From a virus (Duplodnaviria; Caudoviricetes): a stretch of DNA of 64,000 nucleotides. The notes under the pieces are model-generated. The model worked only from the letters and a program-made list of their open reading frames with translations, made no database searches and had not been told where the DNA came from. The number at the start of each line of letters is the position of its first letter. The first letter of the stretch is position 1. The DNA lies in IMG/VR virus record IMGVR_UViG_3300023218_000062; one strand, given 5' to 3'. A program made the translations under genes and the position numbers. Positions 23,530 to 49,056 of the stretch are shown here, piece by piece.

Positions 23530-25041
23530 GTGTGTTCAATTATTATAATGTCTGCAGAAGAGTTATATTTTCTAACCGAAAAATACCCCCCAAGACGCAG
23601 CACATCTAATGTGCGTATAAAATATCCTAAAGAATACGAAAAACTAATAGAATTAACAAGTTTCTTACCTGATACTGCAACAACATCCCAACGCTTATGG
23701 CATGTTCGCCATGATAAATTTGAATTCCCTATATGTGAACATGAAGATTGTATTAAACCCACAAAATGGACTCCATCATATTCAGATTATGCACGCTTTT
23801 GCTCTACAAGATGCTTCAATAAAAATAAAACAAAGAATGCAGAAATTAACAAACATCGTAAAAACATAGAAAAGTACGGTGAAAACTATGAAGATTTGAC
23901 GACATTAGATAAAATGAAACTAACTAATGTTAAACGATATGGTGTGGATAACCCATTTAAAAATGTCAATAGGATACGAAAAAGAAATAATGAAAAATAT
24001 GGATGTGATTTTCATTTTCAGCAACATTTATCCGAAGACTCTTTGAGTAAATTGAATGATAAAGAATGGTTAGTTGAAATGAATCATAATCAGAAACGTA
24101 GTTGTGTAGAAATTTCAGAAAAATTAGAGGTTAATAATTCTACAGTAAATAAAGCAATGTATAGACTAGGGCTTATACCTAGTTATCTCTATTCATCAAG
24201 TTACTCTGAGAAACAATTAGCAACATATTTAAAAGATCAGCATATTACAGTAGTCGAAAATGATAGGTCTGTCATAGCCCCGTTAGAACTGGATATTATG
24301 CTACCAGATTACAATCTAGCGATAGAATATTGTGGATTGTACTGGCATAATGAACTGCACAAAGATAATAATTATCATGAAAATAAGTACAAAAAATGTA
24401 AAGAGATAGGAATTGATTTATTAACCATATATGAAGATGAATGGCATGATAAATCTGAATTAATAAAAAAGATGATAATGCATCGAATAGGAATGAATAC
24501 AGCTACTAAAATATACGCTAGAAGTTGTAAAATAGCTGAGGCGTGTTCAATGGATAAAAAAGAATTCTTTGATAATACGCACATTCAAGGAAATGGCCCA
24601 AGTTCTATTAATGCAGGATTATATCATAATGGTAGTTTAGTGGCTTGTGTGGGGCTGATAAGAACTAAAAATGAAAAAATGGTATTGAATAGATTTTCTA
24701 CAAAATATATTGTCCCCGGAGCATTTTCGAGATTGTTAAAATATATATTAAATAAGTATAAACCAAGCGAAATAATAACATTTGCGGATCTTAGATGGGG
24801 AGATGGGAAATTATATCAAGCTAATGGTTTTACATTAGATAAAAAACTAAAACCTGATTATTATTATGTTTATCAAAATAAACGATTTCATAAATTTAAT
24901 TTTAGGCATAACAAACTCAAAAAACTATTATCTTATTATGATAATGATAAAACTGAACATGAAAATTGCGTAAACAACAATATTTTCCGAATATATGATT
25001 GTGGAAAATATAGATACGTTTTAGGAAATGACTATAAATAG
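23530..25041 (+). CDS. Free-standing Hef-like homing endonuclease (Vsr-like nuclease + Mom/GNAT-like C-terminal domain); likely start ATG 23548
   Basis: ELDIMLPDYNLAIEYCGLYWH, IYEDEW, THIQG, ITFADLRWGDGKLY, IYDCG. Confidence 0.75.
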   Translation: MCSIIIMSAEELYFLTEKYPPRRSTSNVRIKYPKEYEKLIELTSFLPDTATTSQRLWHVRHDKFEFPICEHEDCIKPTKWTPSYSDYARFCSTRCFNKNKTKNAEINKHRKNIEKYGENYEDLTTLDKMKLTNVKRYGVDNPFKNVNRIRKRNNEKYGCDFHFQQHLSEDSLSKLNDKEWLVEMNHNQKRSCVEISEKLEVNNSTVNKAMYRLGLIPSYLYSSSYSEKQLATYLKDQHITVVENDRSVIAPLELDIMLPDYNLAIEYCGLYWHNELHKDNNYHENKYKKCKEIGIDLLTIYEDEWHDKSELIKKMIMHRIGMNTATKIYARSCKIAEACSMDKKEFFDNTHIQGNGPSSINAGLYHNGSLVACVGLIRTKNEKMVLNRFSTKYIVPGAFSRLLKYILNKYKPSEIITFADLRWGDGKLYQANGFTLDKKLKPDYYYVYQNKRFHKFNFRHNKLKKLLSYYDNDKTEHENCVNNNIFRIYDCGKYRYVLGNDYK

Positions 25042-28513: not shown

Positions 28514-30121
28514 ATGAAAAAAGAATATTATGATTATATTGTTAACGAAATAAAACTAAGGCCCAAGAATATAGATTTGGGCACAAATAATGTACAGGAT
28601 ATAGAATGTCTTTTATGTGGTAACACATTTAAGGCAGGCGTGAAAGGTAAGGTAAATAATTATAGAAAACATGGGATGAAAGGGTGTAAAGAATGTACTT
28701 CAATCCAAAGATATGAAAATATAAGAAATGATAGAATAAAAGAATTAGAGGAAAAATTTGAGCTATATAATATTGACCCTAAGACTGTAAATAATATGTC
28801 TATGGTTAAAGTTCGCAATAAAAAATGTGGTCACTTTTTTAAAGTAAAATACGGAAATCTATTAAATCGTGACGTAAATTGCCCCATATGCAACACAGAA
28901 CGAAAAAGAGAGCAATTTAGACAATTTAATGACGAGCGCCATGAAGAGTCATACTTATTGAAAGAAGGTTTCGACGCATATAAACAGAAAGTGTATAAGT
29001 TCACTAGAGAAACATATAGAAAACATAAAGACAAGATCAATCCTGAGAACCATACAAGAGTATTAAGTGGTGAGAAAGGCTACCATTTAGATCATATCAT
29101 ATCTGTAAGAAATTCCTTTGATTTAGGAGTCCCACCAGAAGTATGTGCAGATTATAGAAATATGCGCATGGTGAAATGGAAGGATAATAATAAAAAGTGG
29201 AAGCGCTCTTCTCTTAGAATACCAGAACCCTATTATCCATATGTTAATAATACATCAGATGAATTTATAAAAATAATGAACAATTCTGTAAAAACAGATT
29301 TTAATGCATATGTAGATTTCTCTAAATTCATGCTGACCCTATATAATGAAAAGGAAAAATTTGGTATATATTACGCTCCACTTTCTACTAATACACAGCA
29401 GATATTAGGCTCTAAGAATTATTTTAAGCAGATGAAGGAATACTTTGCTGAAAAAAGTATCACATTATTAATAATATTTGAAGATGAATGGATCAAGAAT
29501 AGATTATTAGTTATCGACAAAATACAACATTATATGAACCAGAGTGAAAAGACTACCATATATGCTAGAAAATGTGAAATACAGGAAATAGGAGTAACTG
29601 ATAAGAATAGTTTTTTGAATGCAAATCACATACAGGGTACTTGTGTAAGTCAAATAAATTTGGGGGCCTTTCATGATGGAAAATTGGTAGCAGTTATGAC
29701 ATTTTCTAAGCCTAGAATATTGATGAATAAAAAAGAGCAAGCTGGAGGCGTGTATGAACTTGCGAGATTTGCGACAGATGTACAATATCGTATACCGGGA
29801 ATTGCCTCTAAATTGTTGAAACATTTTCAAAGAAACTATAATTATAGTGAGATATATTCATATGCAGATAGGCGCTGGTCCGATGGTAACCTTTATGAAG
29901 TATTGGGATTTGAGAAAACAATTGTCAACCCACCAAATTATCATTATATTATAAACAACCAACGAAAACACAGATGGGGTTATCGAAAGGATGCTTTGAA
30001 GGAGAAATTCCCGGAGAGATATAATAAAGAGTTGACAGAATATCAAAATATGCTTGAAATGGGATATGATAGAATATGGGATTCTGGTTCGATAAAATAT
30101 GCAATATATAATAGTTATTAA
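28514..30121 (+). CDS. Free-standing homing endonuclease (zinc ribbons + HNH + degenerate Vsr-like + Mom/GNAT-like domain)
   Basis: CLLCG/GCKEC/CPIC, YHLDHIIS...NMRMVKWKDN, IFEDEW, NHIQG, ELARFA, YSYADRRWSDG. Confidence 0.75.
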   Translation: MKKEYYDYIVNEIKLRPKNIDLGTNNVQDIECLLCGNTFKAGVKGKVNNYRKHGMKGCKECTSIQRYENIRNDRIKELEEKFELYNIDPKTVNNMSMVKVRNKKCGHFFKVKYGNLLNRDVNCPICNTERKREQFRQFNDERHEESYLLKEGFDAYKQKVYKFTRETYRKHKDKINPENHTRVLSGEKGYHLDHIISVRNSFDLGVPPEVCADYRNMRMVKWKDNNKKWKRSSLRIPEPYYPYVNNTSDEFIKIMNNSVKTDFNAYVDFSKFMLTLYNEKEKFGIYYAPLSTNTQQILGSKNYFKQMKEYFAEKSITLLIIFEDEWIKNRLLVIDKIQHYMNQSEKTTIYARKCEIQEIGVTDKNSFLNANHIQGTCVSQINLGAFHDGKLVAVMTFSKPRILMNKKEQAGGVYELARFATDVQYRIPGIASKLLKHFQRNYNYSEIYSYADRRWSDGNLYEVLGFEKTIVNPPNYHYIINNQRKHRWGYRKDALKEKFPERYNKELTEYQNMLEMGYDRIWDSGSIKYAIYNSY

Positions 30122-41906: not shown

Positions 41907-42835
41907 ATGAATAAAGTAGGAAAAAATTTATATCATGTAAAAGTAGACTTCTCTGCTAGTTGGGAAAAAACGCCAATTACTAAAAAGGAAAAATATTTAG
42001 ATAGTTTACGACGGAGTTTAAAACACAATTTTCCAGAGTACTCGTGGATAGTGACGGATGATAGGATAAGCATAGAAAGTATTTCTCCAACCGACGCACC
42101 AGAACTTTATGAAGTGGATGAATTATACAACCATCAACAGCTTATGTTAGATAACATGAAATCTGATGGTAATACTATTATTGAAACGTCTAGACGATCT
42201 ATACCCTGCTGAAATATATTAAATATATATTAGAACATAACGAAGGCTATCTTATTCGGTACAACGGACCAAATTCATATTTTACTAGTGGTACATTTCA
42301 AAAACTAGAGAACCTGTTAAGGTCTGATACGACTATCTTTTCCCCGCCTGATTCGGAATATAAAATAATAAAAAATGAACTGAGTTATAGGGGTAACACC
42401 GTAAGAACACAATCTGGTAATGATAATGGTGACATTAGGGGAATGCGATATAATGGAGTAATAGACATTTATGATAATGTACGTATAGATAATAAATTTT
42501 TTACTAAGTTAAGCGACAAACCAATTGTAGAATCTTCATGTGATGGAAATCATAAAATTATATGTATGCGTACTGGAACCCCTGATAGTTTATATAGAAA
42601 AGCACTATTAACTGGAGAATTAGGTAATATAAAATTCAAGAACAAATTGAAATTAGATTATACTGAGTTAGATTTATTAAATGATAGAGAAAGTGACATA
42701 CTAAAACTTTCAGATAATAGAAAATATGAACACCTTAAATCTACATTGGGAGAAGAAAATTTTGAGCAAGAATATGGTTTAAAATTGGAGTTTTCTAATA
42801 TCTCGCCATATTATTATGCTAAAACAAAATTTTAA
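41907..42835 (+). pseudogene. Frameshifted terminase-ATPase paralogue
   Basis: ORF 41907..42212 ends LYNHQQLMLDNMKSDGNTIIETSRRS; -1 frame open 42194..42835 ends TLGEENFEQEY; both align by eye to TerL, Walker A GKT missing at the junction. Confidence 0.55.
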
Positions 42836-42916
42836 AGTCTTCTCTTTAAGGTCTTCTCTTTAAAGTCGTTTATTTAAAACAATAATAAATATCTGTGACC
42901 CTTCATAGATATTTGC

Positions 42917-43537
42917 ATGAGTAGACGTAGAGACCCTAGATTAAAAAAAGCACATGAAGAAATAGAATTTGATCAGAGTATGGTCAGAGAACTCATGCGC
43001 TGTTCTACTGATCCAAAGTATTTTATAAAAAATTATATCAAGGTTAAACACCCCAAAAGGGGTAAAATTCCTTTTGCATTGTATGACTATCAGGAAGAAA
43101 TGGTAGATCTTTATAATAGTGATGATGATGTAATTATTATGAGTGCCAGACAAACAGGTAAAACCGAATCAATTTGTGCCTATCTTCTTTGGTATGCAAT
43201 ATTTAATGAAGATGTAACAGTTTTGGTAGTATCTAATAACTCTACTAATGCGATGGAAATTATTTCAAAAGTTCAATATGCATATAAAGAATTGGATAAT
43301 TGGATTAAACCCGGAATTGATGATGATTCATGGAACAAGCACGAATGTAAATTTGATAATGGCTCAAGGATAGTTTCTACTACTACCACTGAAGATTCTG
43401 GCCGAGGTATGGCGATATCGTTATTGTATTGTCATCATAAAGATTCTACTGTTACTGTACGAGATAAATTGACTGGCGAGGTTAAAGAGATTACACTAGA
43501 AAAGCTTTATGATGATTTGTCTAATGGAAAAGAGTGA
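42917..43537 (+). CDS. gp17: Terminase large subunit fragment A (171-aa extein + 35-aa IntN1)
   Basis: LYDYQ adenine motif, SARQTGKT Walker A, SGRGMAISLLY then CHHKDSTV intein block A. Confidence 0.92.
   Translation: MSRRRDPRLKKAHEEIEFDQSMVRELMRCSTDPKYFIKNYIKVKHPKRGKIPFALYDYQEEMVDLYNSDDDVIIMSARQTGKTESICAYLLWYAIFNEDVTVLVVSNNSTNAMEIISKVQYAYKELDNWIKPGIDDDSWNKHECKFDNGSRIVSTTTTEDSGRGMAISLLYCHHKDSTVTVRDKLTGEVKEITLEKLYDDLSNGKE
43430..43534 (+). mobile_element. Split intein 1, N-fragment (35 aa)
   Basis: CHHKDSTVTVRDKLTGEVKEITLEKLYDDL then stop. Confidence 0.85.
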
Positions 43538-45164
43538 AATAATAGAATATATTGAAAAAAAGAGGAAAATATCAAACAAATTTACCAAACCTCCTAAAGA
43601 ATTTGTTGATAGTTTAAAAAGACATACGTCGCATTTAAAAATTTGTGATAGAACGCCAGTAACTGCACAACTCATATGGCATTTTGAATATAATAAAGAC
43701 ACGCCATCCTGTCAAGAATGTGGTGTTAAAAATGTTAAATGGAATGAAGCAAAAAGAAATTATAGATCTTTTTGCTCGCCAAAATGCGCAAATAACAACA
43801 AGCATAAAAAAGAAAAAATAAAAAAAACCCAAGAAGAAAATGGGGGACATCCCTCTATCAGACCTGAAGTACAGAAACGATCAAAAGAAACTAATATGGT
43901 TAGATATGGAACACCATATATCTTAAAAAATAAAAGCATACGAGCTAAAGCAATTAAAACTAATTTAGAAAGATATGGTTTCCCATCTTATACCCAAACA
44001 CCTAAAGCACGAAAGGAAAAAAGTGAATGGCTGAAAGACAACCCAGATCACATGAAATTAATGCACCAAAAATCTAAAGAATATAAACAAACAGAAGAAT
44101 ATAAAAATAATTATAGGGATACATGTATAAAAAGGTTAAATATAAATGTAAAGAATGAAAGCGAGTTTAAAAATTATTTAAAAAAACAACATATAGAGAA
44201 TAAAAAAACCGCTACAGAGATATCTCAAGAAATAGGGATGCATATTAGTAGTGTTTGCAAATGGTTAGGAAAGATGGATGTTGATCGTAAATATTATTAC
44301 ACATCAACAGAACAAAATGAAGTATATGATTTTTTAAAAGAATATGATGTAGATCTACGATCTAATGTCAGAGATGTCATCAGTGGGATAGAATTGGATA
44401 TATATGCACCAGATAAAAAAATCGCAATAGAATATTGTGGGCTATATTGGCATTCTGAGATACATAAACATACAACATATCATAGAGAAAAATATTTGAA
44501 ATGTAAAGAACAAGGAATAAAATTAATAACCATATTTCAGGATGAGTGGTTACATAAAAAAAATATAGTAAAAAAAATGTTATTGGCAAAACTTGGTCTT
44601 TTATCTGATACTAAATTGTATGCTAGAAATACTTATTGCAAAGGCGTCTTGGATTATAAAAATGTTGAGAATTTTTTAGAGCGAAACCACATTCAGGGGA
44701 GGTCTAGTGGATCATTTTACATAGGGCTGTTTGATGATTCAAATGAATTAGTTGCTATTGGGGTTTTTAGGAAAAAGTCTGAATGTGAATATGAATTGAC
44801 ACGATATGCTACTAGTACTTTAGTTATAGGTGGATTTTCAAAAATATTGAAAGGGCTTGAACGGAAAATCGAAAAGGGTAAATCGGTTATAATTTCGACC
44901 TTTGCAGACCTCAGATATTCAGAAGGAAATCTATACCAAAAGACCGGTTTTAATTTGGTAAAAGAATTAAAACCTGATTACAGTTTTGCTAAAAGAGATA
45001 TCAGAATGCATAAATTTAATATGCGAGAACTAGTACGAGAAAACTCGAAAGAGTTAGAGAATGATAACTATTCTATAAATAAAATAGCCAGCATATTAGG
45101 GTATTATAAAATATATGATTGCGGGAAACAAAAATACACAAAAACAATCACTGGTAGAAAATAA
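43509..45164 (+). CDS. Free-standing Hef-like homing endonuclease between IntN1 and IntC1; likely start ATG 43523
   Basis: ELDIYAPDKKIAIEYCGLYWH, IFQDEW, NHIQG, ELTRYA, STFADLRYSEGNLY, IYDCG. Confidence 0.8.
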   Translation: MMICLMEKSEIIEYIEKKRKISNKFTKPPKEFVDSLKRHTSHLKICDRTPVTAQLIWHFEYNKDTPSCQECGVKNVKWNEAKRNYRSFCSPKCANNNKHKKEKIKKTQEENGGHPSIRPEVQKRSKETNMVRYGTPYILKNKSIRAKAIKTNLERYGFPSYTQTPKARKEKSEWLKDNPDHMKLMHQKSKEYKQTEEYKNNYRDTCIKRLNINVKNESEFKNYLKKQHIENKKTATEISQEIGMHISSVCKWLGKMDVDRKYYYTSTEQNEVYDFLKEYDVDLRSNVRDVISGIELDIYAPDKKIAIEYCGLYWHSEIHKHTTYHREKYLKCKEQGIKLITIFQDEWLHKKNIVKKMLLAKLGLLSDTKLYARNTYCKGVLDYKNVENFLERNHIQGRSSGSFYIGLFDDSNELVAIGVFRKKSECEYELTRYATSTLVIGGFSKILKGLERKIEKGKSVIISTFADLRYSEGNLYQKTGFNLVKELKPDYSFAKRDIRMHKFNMRELVRENSKELENDNYSINKIASILGYYKIYDCGKQKYTKTITGRK

Positions 45165-45474
45165 TAGATATGAAATATTAACACCAAATGGATGGGAAGA
45201 TTTTTTAGGAGTAACAAAAAATCAAAAAGATTTTGAATCTATAGAAATAGAGACTAAATCCGGAAAAACAATTCACTCAACTAAAAATCATAGACATTGT
45301 TCAAAATCTGGTGAATATATTCCGGTTAATGAATTTAAAGAGAATGACGAAATTCATACTACCGAGGGATTAGAAAAAATAATACATATTACAGAAAAAA
45401 ATCTCAGTGAGACTTATGATATATTTAAAACTGATTCTAATACTGTAATTGTGAATAAAGTATACACCCATAAT
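45115..45474 (+). mobile_element. Split intein 1, C-fragment (120 aa)
   Basis: ILTPNGW, block B STKNH, TYDI, terminal THN followed by Cys+1. Confidence 0.85.
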
Positions 45475-46119
45475 TGTGACGAACTCGCATTCGTTAAGTC
45501 CAGTATACAGGAAAAGTTCTGGACATCTATATCTCCAACTTTGGCTACGGGAGGAAAGTGTATAATATCTTCTACTCCAAATGGAAACTCAAATTTATTT
45601 GCAGAATTATGGCGGGGAGCAAATAATGAGATAAATTCGTTCAAATATAAGCATGTTCCATGGGATGCCCCACCGGGTAGGGATGAAGAATTTAAACGTC
45701 AGCAAATAGGGAAGATCGGTAAAAGAAAATGGTATCAAGAGTATGAGTGTTGCCATCCGACCTCGTTAATAGAGTTGAGCGACAATGATGAACGCATGTT
45801 TGTTAAAGTACCAATTTCTTTAGCATATGAGTGTCTACGCAACAATAAAGATATATTTAATTTATCACCACCGTGCCTGACTGGAAAATATGTCATTTCT
45901 CCATTAGATGGAAATAAGTATTGTAGAAAAAACGGTAGATTTTTGATGCACCTTAAGGAAAATGGATATATATCATATGAAGATTTTTTTGAAAGTTTAT
46001 TCCCCCAGCACAAAAAAGTCTGTTCCTATTGTAGAAAAACAGCTTCTTTCAACAATTCTACCATGAGTTATTTACGAACATGTGGGGATCGTGTATGTGT
46101 TGGAAAAGAAACATCTTAG
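45115..46119 (+). CDS. gp17: Terminase large subunit fragment B (IntC1 + 91-aa extein + IntN2 with endonuclease remnant)
   Basis: YTHN|CDELAFV (Walker B), ISSTPNG, WYQEYE|CCHPTSLI. Confidence 0.9.
   Translation: MIAGNKNTQKQSLVENNRYEILTPNGWEDFLGVTKNQKDFESIEIETKSGKTIHSTKNHRHCSKSGEYIPVNEFKENDEIHTTEGLEKIIHITEKNLSETYDIFKTDSNTVIVNKVYTHNCDELAFVKSSIQEKFWTSISPTLATGGKCIISSTPNGNSNLFAELWRGANNEINSFKYKHVPWDAPPGRDEEFKRQQIGKIGKRKWYQEYECCHPTSLIELSDNDERMFVKVPISLAYECLRNNKDIFNLSPPCLTGKYVISPLDGNKYCRKNGRFLMHLKENGYISYEDFFESLFPQHKKVCSYCRKTASFNNSTMSYLRTCGDRVCVGKETS
45748..46116 (+). mobile_element. Split intein 2, N-fragment fused to an endonuclease N-terminal remnant
   Basis: CCHPTSLI...ISLAYECL (~30 aa), then Cys-rich CSYC...CGDRVC tail. 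Confidence 0.75.
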
Positions 46120-46176
46120 GACACCATAATTTGCAAATGTTGGATAGTAGAGAAAATAGAAGGAAGAGTTTCAAAT

Positions 46177-46518
46177 ATGAATAACTTGGCGTTCAATGAT
46201 AATAACTGGAAAATAAAATCAATCAATGGCTATGAATCTTTTACAGGAATAGCTAATATGGGAAGTAAGAAAATTTATGAAGTAAACTTTTCTGATAATA
46301 CTAAAATTAAGGTTACTAAACACCACAAATTCATTAATACGAACCTAGATGTGATTGAAGTTATTAATTTAAAATCAGGAGACCAACTATTATCAACAAA
46401 TAGCAATGTTGTTAAAATAGTCAACGGCATACATAAAACAGATGAAAAAACAGACGTATACGATGTAATTGAGTCTTCCAGTAATATGTTTTTTTTGAAT
46501 GGTGTATTAAGTCACAAT
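46177..46518 (+). mobile_element. Split intein 2, C-fragment (114 aa)
   Basis: IKSINGY, block B VTKHHKF, VYDV, NGVLSHN followed by Cys+1. Confidence 0.85.
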
Positions 46519-47322
46519 TGTCGCTTTTTATCAGAAGATCATACTCTTATTGATACCATGATCATCAACAACATTGAAAATGAAATGGATGAGAAATATA
46601 AGGATAACGGCGGAGACCCACCAGTAGCATTCAAGATTGGAGATCTTGAATTCTTTAAGAAGATAAATAAATCCATGGCATATTTAGTGTCTGTTGACGT
46701 TGCATCAGGATCAGGAAGTGACTTTTCTGTTATTGAAGTAACGGAATTTCCGAGTATGGAACAGGTGTTGGAATTTAGATCTAATAACACAAATGAAAAA
46801 TTTTTATATTCCAGACTTAAGAATATTCTCCTATTTTTGCAACAAAATAGTAAAGAAGTCTATTTCTCTGTAGAGAATAATGGATTGGGTGCAAGTATAT
46901 TGGCATTGTATGAATATGATGAATCACCACCGCAAAGCGCATACCTCATTTCTGATAGTAACAACAAGAGGCTAGGTCTTTCAATGTCTGAAACAACTAA
47001 ACGTACAGCTAGTATGAAACTTAAAAATATGATTGAAACAAGATCATATAAATTTTATTCTAAACAAATAATTAAAGAACTAAAGAGCTATACGCGTCAA
47101 GGCGCCAACTTTAAGGCAGAGGTGGGATCTACTGATGACACTATATCAGCATTATTAATCCTAATGAGAATGTTAGAAGAAATGGCTGACTATAATCCAT
47201 ATGCGTTCGATAAGATTTATAATATAAAAGGACAGGATGATAAACAGGAAGAATTTGATGAAGAATTTGTAGACGATCCTAAGACACTAGATGATATGCC
47301 GATGCCTATTAGTATAGCCTGA
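46177..47322 (+). CDS. gp17: Terminase large subunit fragment C (IntC2 + nuclease domain)
   Basis: LSHN|CRFLS, VDVASGSGSDFS, VENNGLG, DDTISAL. Confidence 0.92.
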   Translation: MNNLAFNDNNWKIKSINGYESFTGIANMGSKKIYEVNFSDNTKIKVTKHHKFINTNLDVIEVINLKSGDQLLSTNSNVVKIVNGIHKTDEKTDVYDVIESSSNMFFLNGVLSHNCRFLSEDHTLIDTMIINNIENEMDEKYKDNGGDPPVAFKIGDLEFFKKINKSMAYLVSVDVASGSGSDFSVIEVTEFPSMEQVLEFRSNNTNEKFLYSRLKNILLFLQQNSKEVYFSVENNGLGASILALYEYDESPPQSAYLISDSNNKRLGLSMSETTKRTASMKLKNMIETRSYKFYSKQIIKELKSYTRQGANFKAEVGSTDDTISALLILMRMLEEMADYNPYAFDKIYNIKGQDDKQEEFDEEFVDDPKTLDDMPMPISIA

Positions 47323-47360
47323 AGATTTATATAAATAGAACATAATATATAATGTTATGA

Positions 47361-47918
47361 ATGAAACTAGAATCTCTATTTTTATTTGAAAGGACAATGG
47401 GTTCTTTAGTATCGGTGACTAGAAACTCATTTGGTCCCGATAGAGACACTAATTCTAATGCGGTACAAGTTAAGGATGTACAATATATACCATTGGTTGA
47501 GCAAGGAATGATGCAAGTTAAAGCTAGGACCTTTAGTGGCCCTGATGCTAATGAATATCAATCTATCATATCGATAGATGATGTTGAATATATAAATGAA
47601 GAAGAATTTAATAATATGCAAGGAACGAGCGAGGTAGTATTTGAACTTATATCTTCTGGTGGAACGCCATTTTATGTTAAAGATAATAGAACAAATAATG
47701 ATGTAAAGGTTAGATGTACTTGTGAGGATTTTAGATGGAGATTTGCCAAATATAATTATAATGATCAGAGTCTACAAGGTGACCCACCAGAAGCGTATGC
47801 GAAGAAAACGGATAGACCCTCTGTGAATCCACATAATACACCGGGAGTTTGTAAACATCTAATTAAACTTAAGAAAGAATTAGAAAGAGACGATTTTTTT
47901 AGAACAGTGTTGCAGTAA
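47361..47918 (+). CDS. SWIM zinc-finger protein
   Basis: VRCTCEDF...GVCKHL; late promoter at 47330. Confidence 0.7.
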   Translation: MKLESLFLFERTMGSLVSVTRNSFGPDRDTNSNAVQVKDVQYIPLVEQGMMQVKARTFSGPDANEYQSIISIDDVEYINEEEFNNMQGTSEVVFELISSGGTPFYVKDNRTNNDVKVRCTCEDFRWRFAKYNYNDQSLQGDPPEAYAKKTDRPSVNPHNTPGVCKHLIKLKKELERDDFFRTVLQ

Positions 47919-48066
47919 TACATTCAAGACTATATAATGTTCTAAGAACATTGGATACATCCTGTATCCATAGAAAAAGGCACATGGGGTGCCATAGAGA
48001 TAGTACGATTAGAAACGATACTAGACAGCCTAAGAAACTTAAGAAATTTAAGAAAGGAGATTAAAT
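47910..48066 (+). promoter_or_regulatory. gp32 promoter and structured leader with tandem repeats
   Basis: TTGCAG-N17-TATAAT (47910-47938), two hairpins, TAAGAAA x3 at 48031/48040/48049 abutting the GGAG RBS. Confidence 0.65.
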
Positions 48067-49056
48067 ATGGCTAAAAAATTAACGATGAAAGAAATTCAAG
48101 AGTTAGCAAAAAAGAAAACTTCTGGTGGGGATAAACAAAAGTTTAAGAACAGTGATATATATCCATTTTGGCTAATGGCGGAAGATGAAATCGCTAAGGT
48201 AAGATTTCTTCCAGATAAAAATAAAGAAAATGTTCTTCCATTTATAGAAAAATTGGAGCATAAATTAACGATAGGCGGTAATATTAGAAAAATTCCATGT
48301 CCTAAAATGTATGGACATAAATGCCCTATTTGTGACTTATCTCAGGAATACTATAAATCAGAAGGGGATGATTCTAGTAACGGAAAATACTACTACCGTG
48401 ATCGGATGCATTTAATTAGAGCAATTATAATAGAGGATCCTCTTCCACCTGATTCTGAAACGGGAGAAACGTATGTAGGAAAGACTGCAACACTGCAATT
48501 AGGCTTTCAAATATATGAAAAGATTATGGAGCAATTAGGAACATTTTTCGACGATGACGACATGCCACCATGGGATTTTGATGAGGGGTATAATTTCAAT
48601 ATTAAAAAAGTGAAGCAAGGTAAATATTTTAAATATGATATAGGATCATCATTTGACCGTAAACCTAGTTCTATACCTGATGAATATTTGGAAAATGTCG
48701 AGCTTATAGATTATAGAACTCTTCTACCAGAAGAGATTACTTATGATAAAGCTAATGAATTTCTTGAGAAGCACATGTCTGGTGGTGTGGACGATGAAGA
48801 TAGCTTAGAGAATAAAAAGGTAAAGTCACTAGATGGCGCTGAAAAACGCGCAGCAATGCTGGCACGTTTAGAAGGTAACTTTGAAGAAGATGAAGAAGAT
48901 GAAGAAGATGAAGGTGAGGAAGGTGAGGATGATGAACAGGATGATGAACAGGATGAAGCAAAAAAAGCAATAGAAGAAATTGCTAAAGAGGCTGAAGACG
49001 ACGACGAAGATGCTGAATTACAAGCAATAATAAACCGCCGAAGAAAGAAATCTTGA
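48067..49056 (+). CDS. gp32: Single-stranded DNA-binding protein
   Basis: KVRFLP, CPKMYGHKCPIC zinc site, GYNFNIK, acidic tail. Confidence 0.88.
   Translation: MAKKLTMKEIQELAKKKTSGGDKQKFKNSDIYPFWLMAEDEIAKVRFLPDKNKENVLPFIEKLEHKLTIGGNIRKIPCPKMYGHKCPICDLSQEYYKSEGDDSSNGKYYYRDRMHLIRAIIIEDPLPPDSETGETYVGKTATLQLGFQIYEKIMEQLGTFFDDDDMPPWDFDEGYNFNIKKVKQGKYFKYDIGSSFDRKPSSIPDEYLENVELIDYRTLLPEEITYDKANEFLEKHMSGGVDDEDSLENKKVKSLDGAEKRAAMLARLEGNFEEDEEDEEDEGEEGEDDEQDDEQDEAKKAIEEIAKEAEDDDEDAELQAIINRRRKKS

Follow-up and report, generated by a model that had tools for sequence, protein, structure and literature searches.

A T4-type large terminase gene predicted to be fractured in its Walker B strand by an atypically split intein and a homing endonuclease gene

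To our knowledge, only a few split inteins with a short N-terminal fragment (IntN) have been characterised, namely AceL-TerL, GOS-TerL, Cat, VidaL and PolB16, and such inteins are wanted for chemical protein labelling since peptide synthesis can supply the N-fragment. The primary studies of AceL-TerL, GOS-TerL and Cat are reportedly those of Thiel 2014, Bachmann and Mootz 2015 and Stevens 2018. In the sections cited here, AceL-TerL, GOS-TerL and the consensus intein Cat (PDB 6DSL) are presented as naturally, atypically split inteins of the phage large terminase (TerL) and as characterised tools (PMC11766414, PMC13014065), and the IntN of the atypical TerL inteins is given as 15-37 amino acids (aa), made up of motif N1 and the first helix, with the other motifs held by the C-terminal fragment, IntC (PMC13014065). 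The fractured genes described by Dassa et al. 2009 (PMC2677866) include a gp17-like terminase locus from Lake Gatun, and the terminase intein of that study has an unusual break, its 122-residue C-part lacking only motif N1. The Walker B motif of a large terminase is the site of the mycobacteriophage TerL1-e intein, for which splicing was shown (Kelley et al. 2016, PMC5050341). Here we describe a T4-type TerL gene at 42917-47322 (plus strand) of a 64-kb stretch of the phage record IMGVR_UViG_3300023218_000062; the whole stretch is called the window below, and all positions are window positions. As judged from its sequence, this is very probably a fractured TerL gene in which an atypically split class 1 intein (intein 1) lies in the Walker B strand, is itself split by a homing endonuclease gene and trans-splices. 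The stretch was found in four DNA metagenome runs, all of one study, and no RNA run is listed for it.

The terminase region consists of four open reading frames (ORFs), with the TerL coding sequence split over three of them (A, C and D) and an endonuclease encoded by ORF B. ORFs A, B and C are each in a different reading frame. The ORFs, the TerL pieces (exteins) and the two fragments of intein 1 are located as follows:

42917-43537 (+): ORF A, 206 aa; N-terminal ATPase part of TerL and IntN1
42917-43429 (+): TerL N-extein (residues 1-171), with Walker A 'ARQTGKT'; its end, ...GRGMAISLLY, opens the Walker B strand
43430-43534 (+): IntN1, 35 aa, with Cys1, block A, beta strands and a single helix (..TLEKLYDDL..), then a stop codon (43535-43537)
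43509-45164 (+): ORF B, 551 aa; homing endonuclease
45115-46119 (+): ORF C, 334 aa; IntC1, middle extein and IntN2
45115-45474 (+): IntC1, 120 aa; block B T56-x-x-H59, block F (Y-D-I) and block G ending H119-N120
45475-45747 (+): middle extein, 91 aa; Cys+1 (45475-45477), then D-E; ends ..WYQEYE
46177-47322 (+): ORF D, 381 aa; IntC2 and nuclease domain
46519-47322 (+): TerL C-extein, 267 aa; starts C-R-F-L-S-E-D; nuclease domain

When the exteins are joined in silico (171 + 91 + 267), they give a 529-aa TerL that is colinear from end to end with a 548-aa intein-free protein, the TerL of Xanthomonas phage XacN1 (50% identity in a global alignment). Walker A, Walker B with its catalytic Glu and the C-terminal RNase H-like nuclease are colinear in the spliced product, as in T4-type Terminase_6 proteins. 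ORF A matches Pfam Terminase_6N (expectation value, E, 1.2e-6), phrog_5989 (4.7e-54) and the T4 gp17 structures 2o0h/3cpe (E 1e-22), and its closest cultured relatives are Xanthomonas phages XacN1 and Xoo-sp13, at ~65% identity each. The middle extein, which holds the Walker B Asp, the catalytic Glu and the coupling motif region (..SSTPNG..), has terminase matches to phrog_36964/phrog_2, while the C-extein matches phrog_36964 (4.7e-20) and, weakly, Terminase_6C.

The alignment with T4 gp17 pairs ...SLLY-C with ...MIY-I and places intein 1 between the residues equivalent to Y253 and I254; Cys+1 aligns with I254, directly before D255 (the Walker B Asp) and E256 (the catalytic Glu). The TerL of XacN1 reads ..RGLAISLIY/CDELAFVKP at this junction (marked by the slash) and ..WQQEFE/CMFISSDHT at the second one, and since it has a Cys at both junctions, the two +1 cysteines belong natively to the intein-free allele. 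Another intein-free allele (P0229) has Leu at the place of the Cys (..SLLFLDEFAFV). The site of intein 1 (Y/CDE) lies 91 residues upstream of that of a second intein (intein 2, QEYE/CRF), and it is not the AceL-TerL/Cat site. From its sequence, it is break 2 that is of the AceL-TerL/Cat type: IntC2 matches the CatC chain (PDB 6dsl_B), which reads C-E after its junction, at 1.3e-7, whereas IntC1 alone matches it at 0.08, and IntC1 and IntC2 are 28% identical. Because IntC2 holds the Cat-type site and IntC1 is weak on CatC, intein 1 is, on these sequence comparisons, paralogous to the AceL/Cat lineage and occupies another site, upstream.

The residues that mark a class 1 intein are all present in intein 1, namely Cys1 (codon 43430-43432), a block B T-x-x-H within S-T-K-N-H (IntC1 residues 55-59), an H-N end (...VYTHN, followed by the extein CDELAFV) and a +1 Cys. 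Positions 30-80 of the 83 in TIGR01445, 'intein N-terminal splicing region', align with IntC1 residues 15-60, and IntC1 residues 21-120 align with residues 29-128 of the gp41-1 intein. These two alignments indicate that IntC1 lacks only the first ~28-35 intein residues, which IntN1 supplies. A family profile was made from a Walker B IntC alignment of 32 relatives, in which the block B His (H59) and Cys+1-D-E are invariant. Its matches to solved inteins are far above chance: CatC (6dsl_B) at 1.3e-15, gp41-1 at 3.6e-13, VidaL at 2e-7, and several DnaB, DnaE and DnaX inteins at 1e-7 to 1e-5. Profile positions 7-113 align with CatC 13-114, nearly the full length of a chain that is itself an IntC fragment, whereas gp41-1 is matched only at 29-128 and VidaL only at 43-141; since both are matched only from inside the intein, IntC1 starts after the intein's N-terminal segment. 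The HINT fold is assigned from the sequence profile alone.

IntN1 was aligned with six relatives, drawn from contigs that encode IntC relatives (a word-based search with the IntN1 region gave only 3 proteins), and C1, V, K, T and L-Y are invariant in the 7 sequences. The six include two contiguous mini-inteins at the same site (P0096 and P0135), in which the halves are joined by a short linker. Searches of the PDB with the IntN1 and IntN2 peptides returned chance matches only. Taken by sequence, IntN1 comprises block A and the first helix and IntC1 everything else, a split at the point 'S2', as in AceL-TerL and GOS-TerL.

An earlier note on this DNA had already read a split intein in the Walker B motif of TerL, with a 35-aa IntN1 holding block A only, block B (STKNH) in IntC1, a Cys+1 directly before the catalytic D-E and a site that seemed to be other than that of AceL-TerL, given as QEFE/CEF. 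The location is borne out by the T4 gp17 alignment, the XacN1 junction and the profile matches, the distribution of the blocks by the TIGR01445 and gp41-1 alignments, and the place of Cys+1 by its pairing with I254 and by Y/CDELAFV in XacN1; the AceL-type site is held by intein 2, as the CatC match of IntC2 indicates. Of the span given there, 43430-45477, the start is right but the end is not: IntC1 stops at 45474, and 45477 belongs to the Cys+1 codon.

Docking of IntC1 plus 14 extein residues against 10 extein residues plus IntN1, each entered as an alignment, gave a model score of 0.75 (runs 0.73, 0.76 and 0.75; best control 0.00), a mark reached by 58 of 80 solved complexes and by 2 of 110 mismatched pairs. 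The runs share at least 80% of their contacts, with a predicted local distance difference test value (pLDDT) of 73-74 for the partner, and the stretch around Y-1/Cys1 contacts IntC1 at residues 53-60 (block B) and 119-120 (H-N). This score may mirror likeness to the solved complex 6DSL and need not be independent support for binding. Split-intein halves bind tightly on their own, and a high docking score would also suit halves that no longer splice and act as a non-covalent clamp holding the TerL fragments together. A fragmented phage ribonucleotide reductase is described, in the section cited, as assembled via interaction domains derived from a mobile element (PMC3045599). Relaxed or slow chemistry is possible in the many relatives that have a terminal Gln or a penultimate Lys, Ser or Phe. 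A clamp is nevertheless improbable here, where Cys1, T-x-x-H, H-N and Cys+1 are all kept; the relatives share C1, the block B His and Cys+1-D-E without exception; and the gene is broken within a beta strand of the ATPase core, beside the catalytic Glu, so that an unspliced HINT domain should block the active site.

In the trans-splicing mechanism that we favour, a free-standing EDxHD/Vsr-like homing endonuclease gene would have split intein 1 after its first helix. ORF A encodes TerL residues 1-171 with IntN1, ORF C encodes IntC1, 91 aa of TerL and IntN2, and ORF D encodes IntC2 and the nuclease domain. IntN1 would thread onto the nearly complete IntC1 and complete the HINT fold, upon which Cys1, T56/H59, H119-N120 and Cys+1 would perform protein trans-splicing in the standard way. 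The third piece would be added by another split intein, of the AceL-TerL type and presumably orthogonal, to give the 529-aa TerL. With Walker A on ORF A and the Walker B Asp-Glu on ORF C, the ATPase would form only after splicing, and the scheme implies that the two intein pairs do not cross-react in vivo within one protein. The endonuclease would cleave intein-free TerL alleles near the Walker B codons, so that the cassette spreads by homing, and the overlapping ORF ends may keep the endonuclease at a low level of expression or tie its synthesis to translation of TerL.

The element is real and, as judged from its sequence, most likely functional. Each of the three TerL pieces is open and runs colinear with the TerL of XacN1, with no frameshift and no missing motif, the three-piece layout recurs in many independent metagenome contigs, and no second TerL-like match was found within the window. 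Set against these observations, it is very unlikely that the fractured gene is a decaying copy and that packaging is carried out by an intact terminase elsewhere in the ~247-kb phage genome, although the search covered the window and not the whole genome and the endonuclease gene at site 2 does show decay. The parts of intein 2 are these:

45748-46119 (+): IntN2, ~30 aa, starting C-C-H-P-T-S-L-I, and a ~90-aa Cys-rich tail; stop codon TAG at 46117-46119
46177-46518 (+): IntC2, 114 aa; atypical IntC of the AceL-TerL/Cat type; ends ..LSHN

The junction of intein 2 was placed by means of the XacN1 alignment (QEFE/CMF) and of relatives. The last 49 aa of the IntN2 tail match the N-terminus of the site-2 endonuclease in a metagenome locus, L007 (31% identity, E 5.6e-5), which makes it look as though a site-2 endonuclease gene has been lost here by deletion and a stub of it, fused to IntN2, is left. 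IntC2/ORF D is preceded by a strong Shine-Dalgarno sequence (GAAGGAAGAG).

The TAG of ORF C is in frame with the ATG of ORF D, 60 nucleotides (nt) on, and ORFs further upstream overlap. Both features would suit a reading of the three ORFs as one polypeptide, through programmed frameshifting or read-through, with a contiguous intein and a nested endonuclease. Such a reading is barely credible, however, with ORFs A, B and C in three frames, overlaps of 29 nt and 50 nt, no slippery-site evidence and an endonuclease that is not at the canonical nested position; moreover, relatives carry other endonuclease families, or none, between the same halves, and TAG is a normal stop in the window. Recoding of TAG that would fuse ORF C and ORF D was rejected as well, TAG ending 3 of the 41 long plus-strand ORFs with no sign of recoding.

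The endonuclease that would have broken intein 1 is laid out as follows:

43509-45164 (+): free-standing homing endonuclease; DUF7487 region, helix-turn-helix-like region, candidate EDxHD/Vsr-like core (~residues 266-355) and C-terminal ~190 aa

ORF B matches phrog_3339, 'homing endonuclease', at 7.9e-100 and Pfam DUF7487 at 4e-7. Its residues 266-355 have a weak match (E 0.004) to PDB 3r3p, the nuclease domain of I-Bth0305I, and its match to Pfam MTES_1575 (8e-7, 29.5 bits) is under the cut-off of 38.2. The Vsr-like/EDxHD family, to which I-Bth0305I belongs as its type member, was originally reported from fractured genes (PMC2677866, PMC3239194). A homologue of ORF B with 32% identity lies between the same TerL halves in another metagenome locus, L009. 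Two paralogues of ORF B, at 23530-25041 and 28514-30121 (32% and 30% identity), are free-standing beside head genes in the window; the second also has an HNH-like segment that matches the HNH endonuclease encoded between the TerL halves of locus L004 (E 5e-8), which suggests that domains have been exchanged among these endonucleases. No Pfam or NCBIfam family matches the C-terminal ~190 aa of ORF B (residues ~365-551, 44600-45161), a stretch that is kept in all three window paralogues and in L009 and may serve to bind DNA. The idea that the endonuclease is borne by a group I intron or another RNA element was rejected, there being no Rfam match at E up to 1 in 42500-47600. A scan for plus-strand terminators inside the gene found none, and promoter-like sites were at chance level.

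ORF B overlaps ORF A by 29 nt (43509-43537) and ORF C by 50 nt (45115-45164), in different frames. These lengths assume the first ATG of each ORF, with which the overlaps in the earlier note agree exactly. The translational coupling that it took them to imply did not hold up as well as the overlaps themselves and is at most something we infer, with no obvious Shine-Dalgarno sequence before ORF B. For ORF B no obvious ribosome-binding site was seen; before ORF C, AGGG stands at a distance of 13 nt. Overlaps recur among relatives, with lengths from 4 to 38 nt.

When IntC1 was used in a word-based search, at least 74 metagenome protein clusters (90% identity) proved to begin with a related IntC and to continue with C-D-E; 70 of these 74 close clusters end in H-Q and not in H-N, and 21 of the 74 are short middle pieces ending in a second IntN. 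An exhaustive search of 1.84 billion representatives yielded 349 clusters at E up to 0.001, of which the best 150 were sorted by insertion site, with split forms counted apart from internal ones (contiguous or fused):

Walker B, x/CDE: 61 split, 10 internal
AceL-type site: 18 split, 9 internal
Upstream in Walker B, x/C-hhh-DE: 4 split, 12 internal
P-loop site: 8 split, 1 internal

The Walker B allele is not rare but widespread in uncultured phages. In a tree of the IntC sequences, which has few columns and many unresolved forks, the insertion-site labels are strongly clustered, needing 29 changes as compared with 71 in shuffles. The group to which IntC1 belongs has 32 rows, 31 of them Walker B (support 85/98), and a second Walker B group, with K-N ends, is separate. 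The ends seen among the relatives are HQ, HN, KN and SN, and a penultimate Lys, Ser or Phe occurs; within the Walker B lineage, the H-Q end of the close clusters stands beside K-N in 19 of the 61 distant representatives. Inteins do not usually have a terminal Gln or lack the penultimate His, and such ends may go with chemistry that is slowed or changed.

The fractured-gene layout recurs in metagenome loci (L004, L006/L007 and L009) and in Salicola phage SCTP-2. L004 and L005 have an HNH endonuclease gene between the TerL halves, with overlaps of 38 and 20 nt; in L006-L008 the same arrangement is joined by a second split with a DUF7487 endonuclease gene; and L009 has an endonuclease of the ORF B type between the halves. 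An extra IntC-like piece lies at the P-loop (G-K/T) of L009 (L009:2-864), upstream of the Walker B IntN, and ends ..SHN/TETS; the L009 TerL would have at least two and probably three inteins. In the 672-aa protein P0087, an HNH-type endonuclease-like N-terminal part of ~200 aa is fused in frame to a Walker B IntC and the rest of TerL. It is possible that P0087 is an intermediate between the free-standing and the fused endonuclease forms.

Among the GenBank phage junctions that were read, a set that leaves aside several weaker matches including Vibrio phage VP-1 (where the match runs into the extein), only SCTP-2 has the exact site (..VSQ/CDEFAFV). In this cultured 440-kb phage (L001 2886-6079) the gene directly upstream of IntC-TerL encodes an HNH endonuclease. 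Since the next upstream genes are on the opposite strand, the TerL N-half and its IntN must lie elsewhere in the genome. The SCTP-2 TerL also has a contiguous intein further downstream (..ISC/LAPG.. to ..GSN/TGG). When the allele is set beside catalogued ones, its difference from the AceL/Cat site, which the earlier note had pointed out, stands. The allele is no rarity in nature, given its spread in metagenomes and its presence in SCTP-2.

Downstream of TerL in the window (47361-49056), a 185-aa ORF is followed by a gene for a gp32-like zinc-finger single-stranded DNA-binding protein (48067-49056). The gene order in XacN1 is TerL, two small ORFs and an annotated single-stranded DNA-binding protein. 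This synteny fits a XacN1-like jumbo phage.

Several points weigh against the trans-splicing scheme or parts of it. IntC1 alone matches solved inteins weakly (E about 0.01), the strong values coming from the family profile, and both splicing and endonuclease activity are predictions from sequence. The two intein pairs are presumed to be orthogonal. Translational coupling is weakly supported and forms the weakest step of the mechanism, because ORF B is without a clear ribosome-binding site and the overlaps exceed the classic coupled stop-start overlaps. A second intact TerL may lie in the rest of the phage genome, beyond the window.

The gene offers a second, sequence-distinct short-IntN pair beside an AceL-type pair, and it is an essential motor gene that has been broken inside its Walker B strand by selfish elements, yet retained. 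Its value is practical and incremental and not conceptual, as the mechanism and the layout are known and the allele is common in uncultured phages. As a tentative and quite possibly mistaken extension, the Walker B (Y/CDE) lineage could be an uncharacterised short-IntN branch that evolved beside the AceL-type intein in the same protein, with mutually orthogonal pairs and with the terminal Gln or Lys-Asn timing assembly. If this were true, it would provide a natural orthogonal set of atypical split inteins for one-pot semisynthesis of proteins from three pieces, and the frequent terminal Gln or Lys-Asn might mark slow or conditional splicing that times the assembly of the packaging ATPase.

The insertion site of intein 1 appears to be undescribed, while the kind of element and the gene layout are already known: no atypically split intein at Y/CDE of a T4-type TerL was found in the literature, in a comparison that did not extend to the exteins of the primary AceL, GOS and Cat reports. 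Intein 1 is like AceL-TerL, GOS-TerL and Cat in its phage TerL host, its 'S2' split and its predicted Cys-dependent class 1 chemistry. Its sizes (IntN 35 aa, IntC 120 aa) are also those of the AceL/GOS/Cat type (IntN 25-37 aa, IntC about 104-122 aa), and its IntC fragment begins at the same structural point as CatC. It is unlike the Cat lineage in its junction, Y/C-D-E in Walker B as against C-E. In the section cited, GOS-TerL is reported to exchange IntN fragments with AceL-TerL (PMC11766414), which argues by inference that GOS-TerL would share the AceL site.

As in Dassa et al. 2009, a gene for a conserved phage enzyme carries a split intein with a free-standing endonuclease gene between the halves, here putatively of the Vsr-like family (later EDxHD, I-Bth0305I) of that study; unlike there, two such inteins are found and the gene is in three pieces. 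The main text of that study (PMC2677866) states no insertion site for the terminase intein, and the likeness drawn here concerns layout. Like intein 1, TerL1-e interrupts a phage large terminase at the Walker B motif (PMC5050341), but it is contiguous, groups with class 3, belongs to a protein of the Terminase_1 family and has no free-standing endonuclease gene. Campylobacter phages of the CP30A type have, as intein 1 has, lopsided IntN and IntC fragments in a T4-type TerL, at a site (..SHN/CAFI) two residues downstream of that of intein 1, after the catalytic Glu. Providencia phage PSTRCR_127 has the same lopsided layout, but at an AceL-type site (QEH/CAEF). The Campylobacter and Providencia IntCs are 30-32% identical to IntC1.

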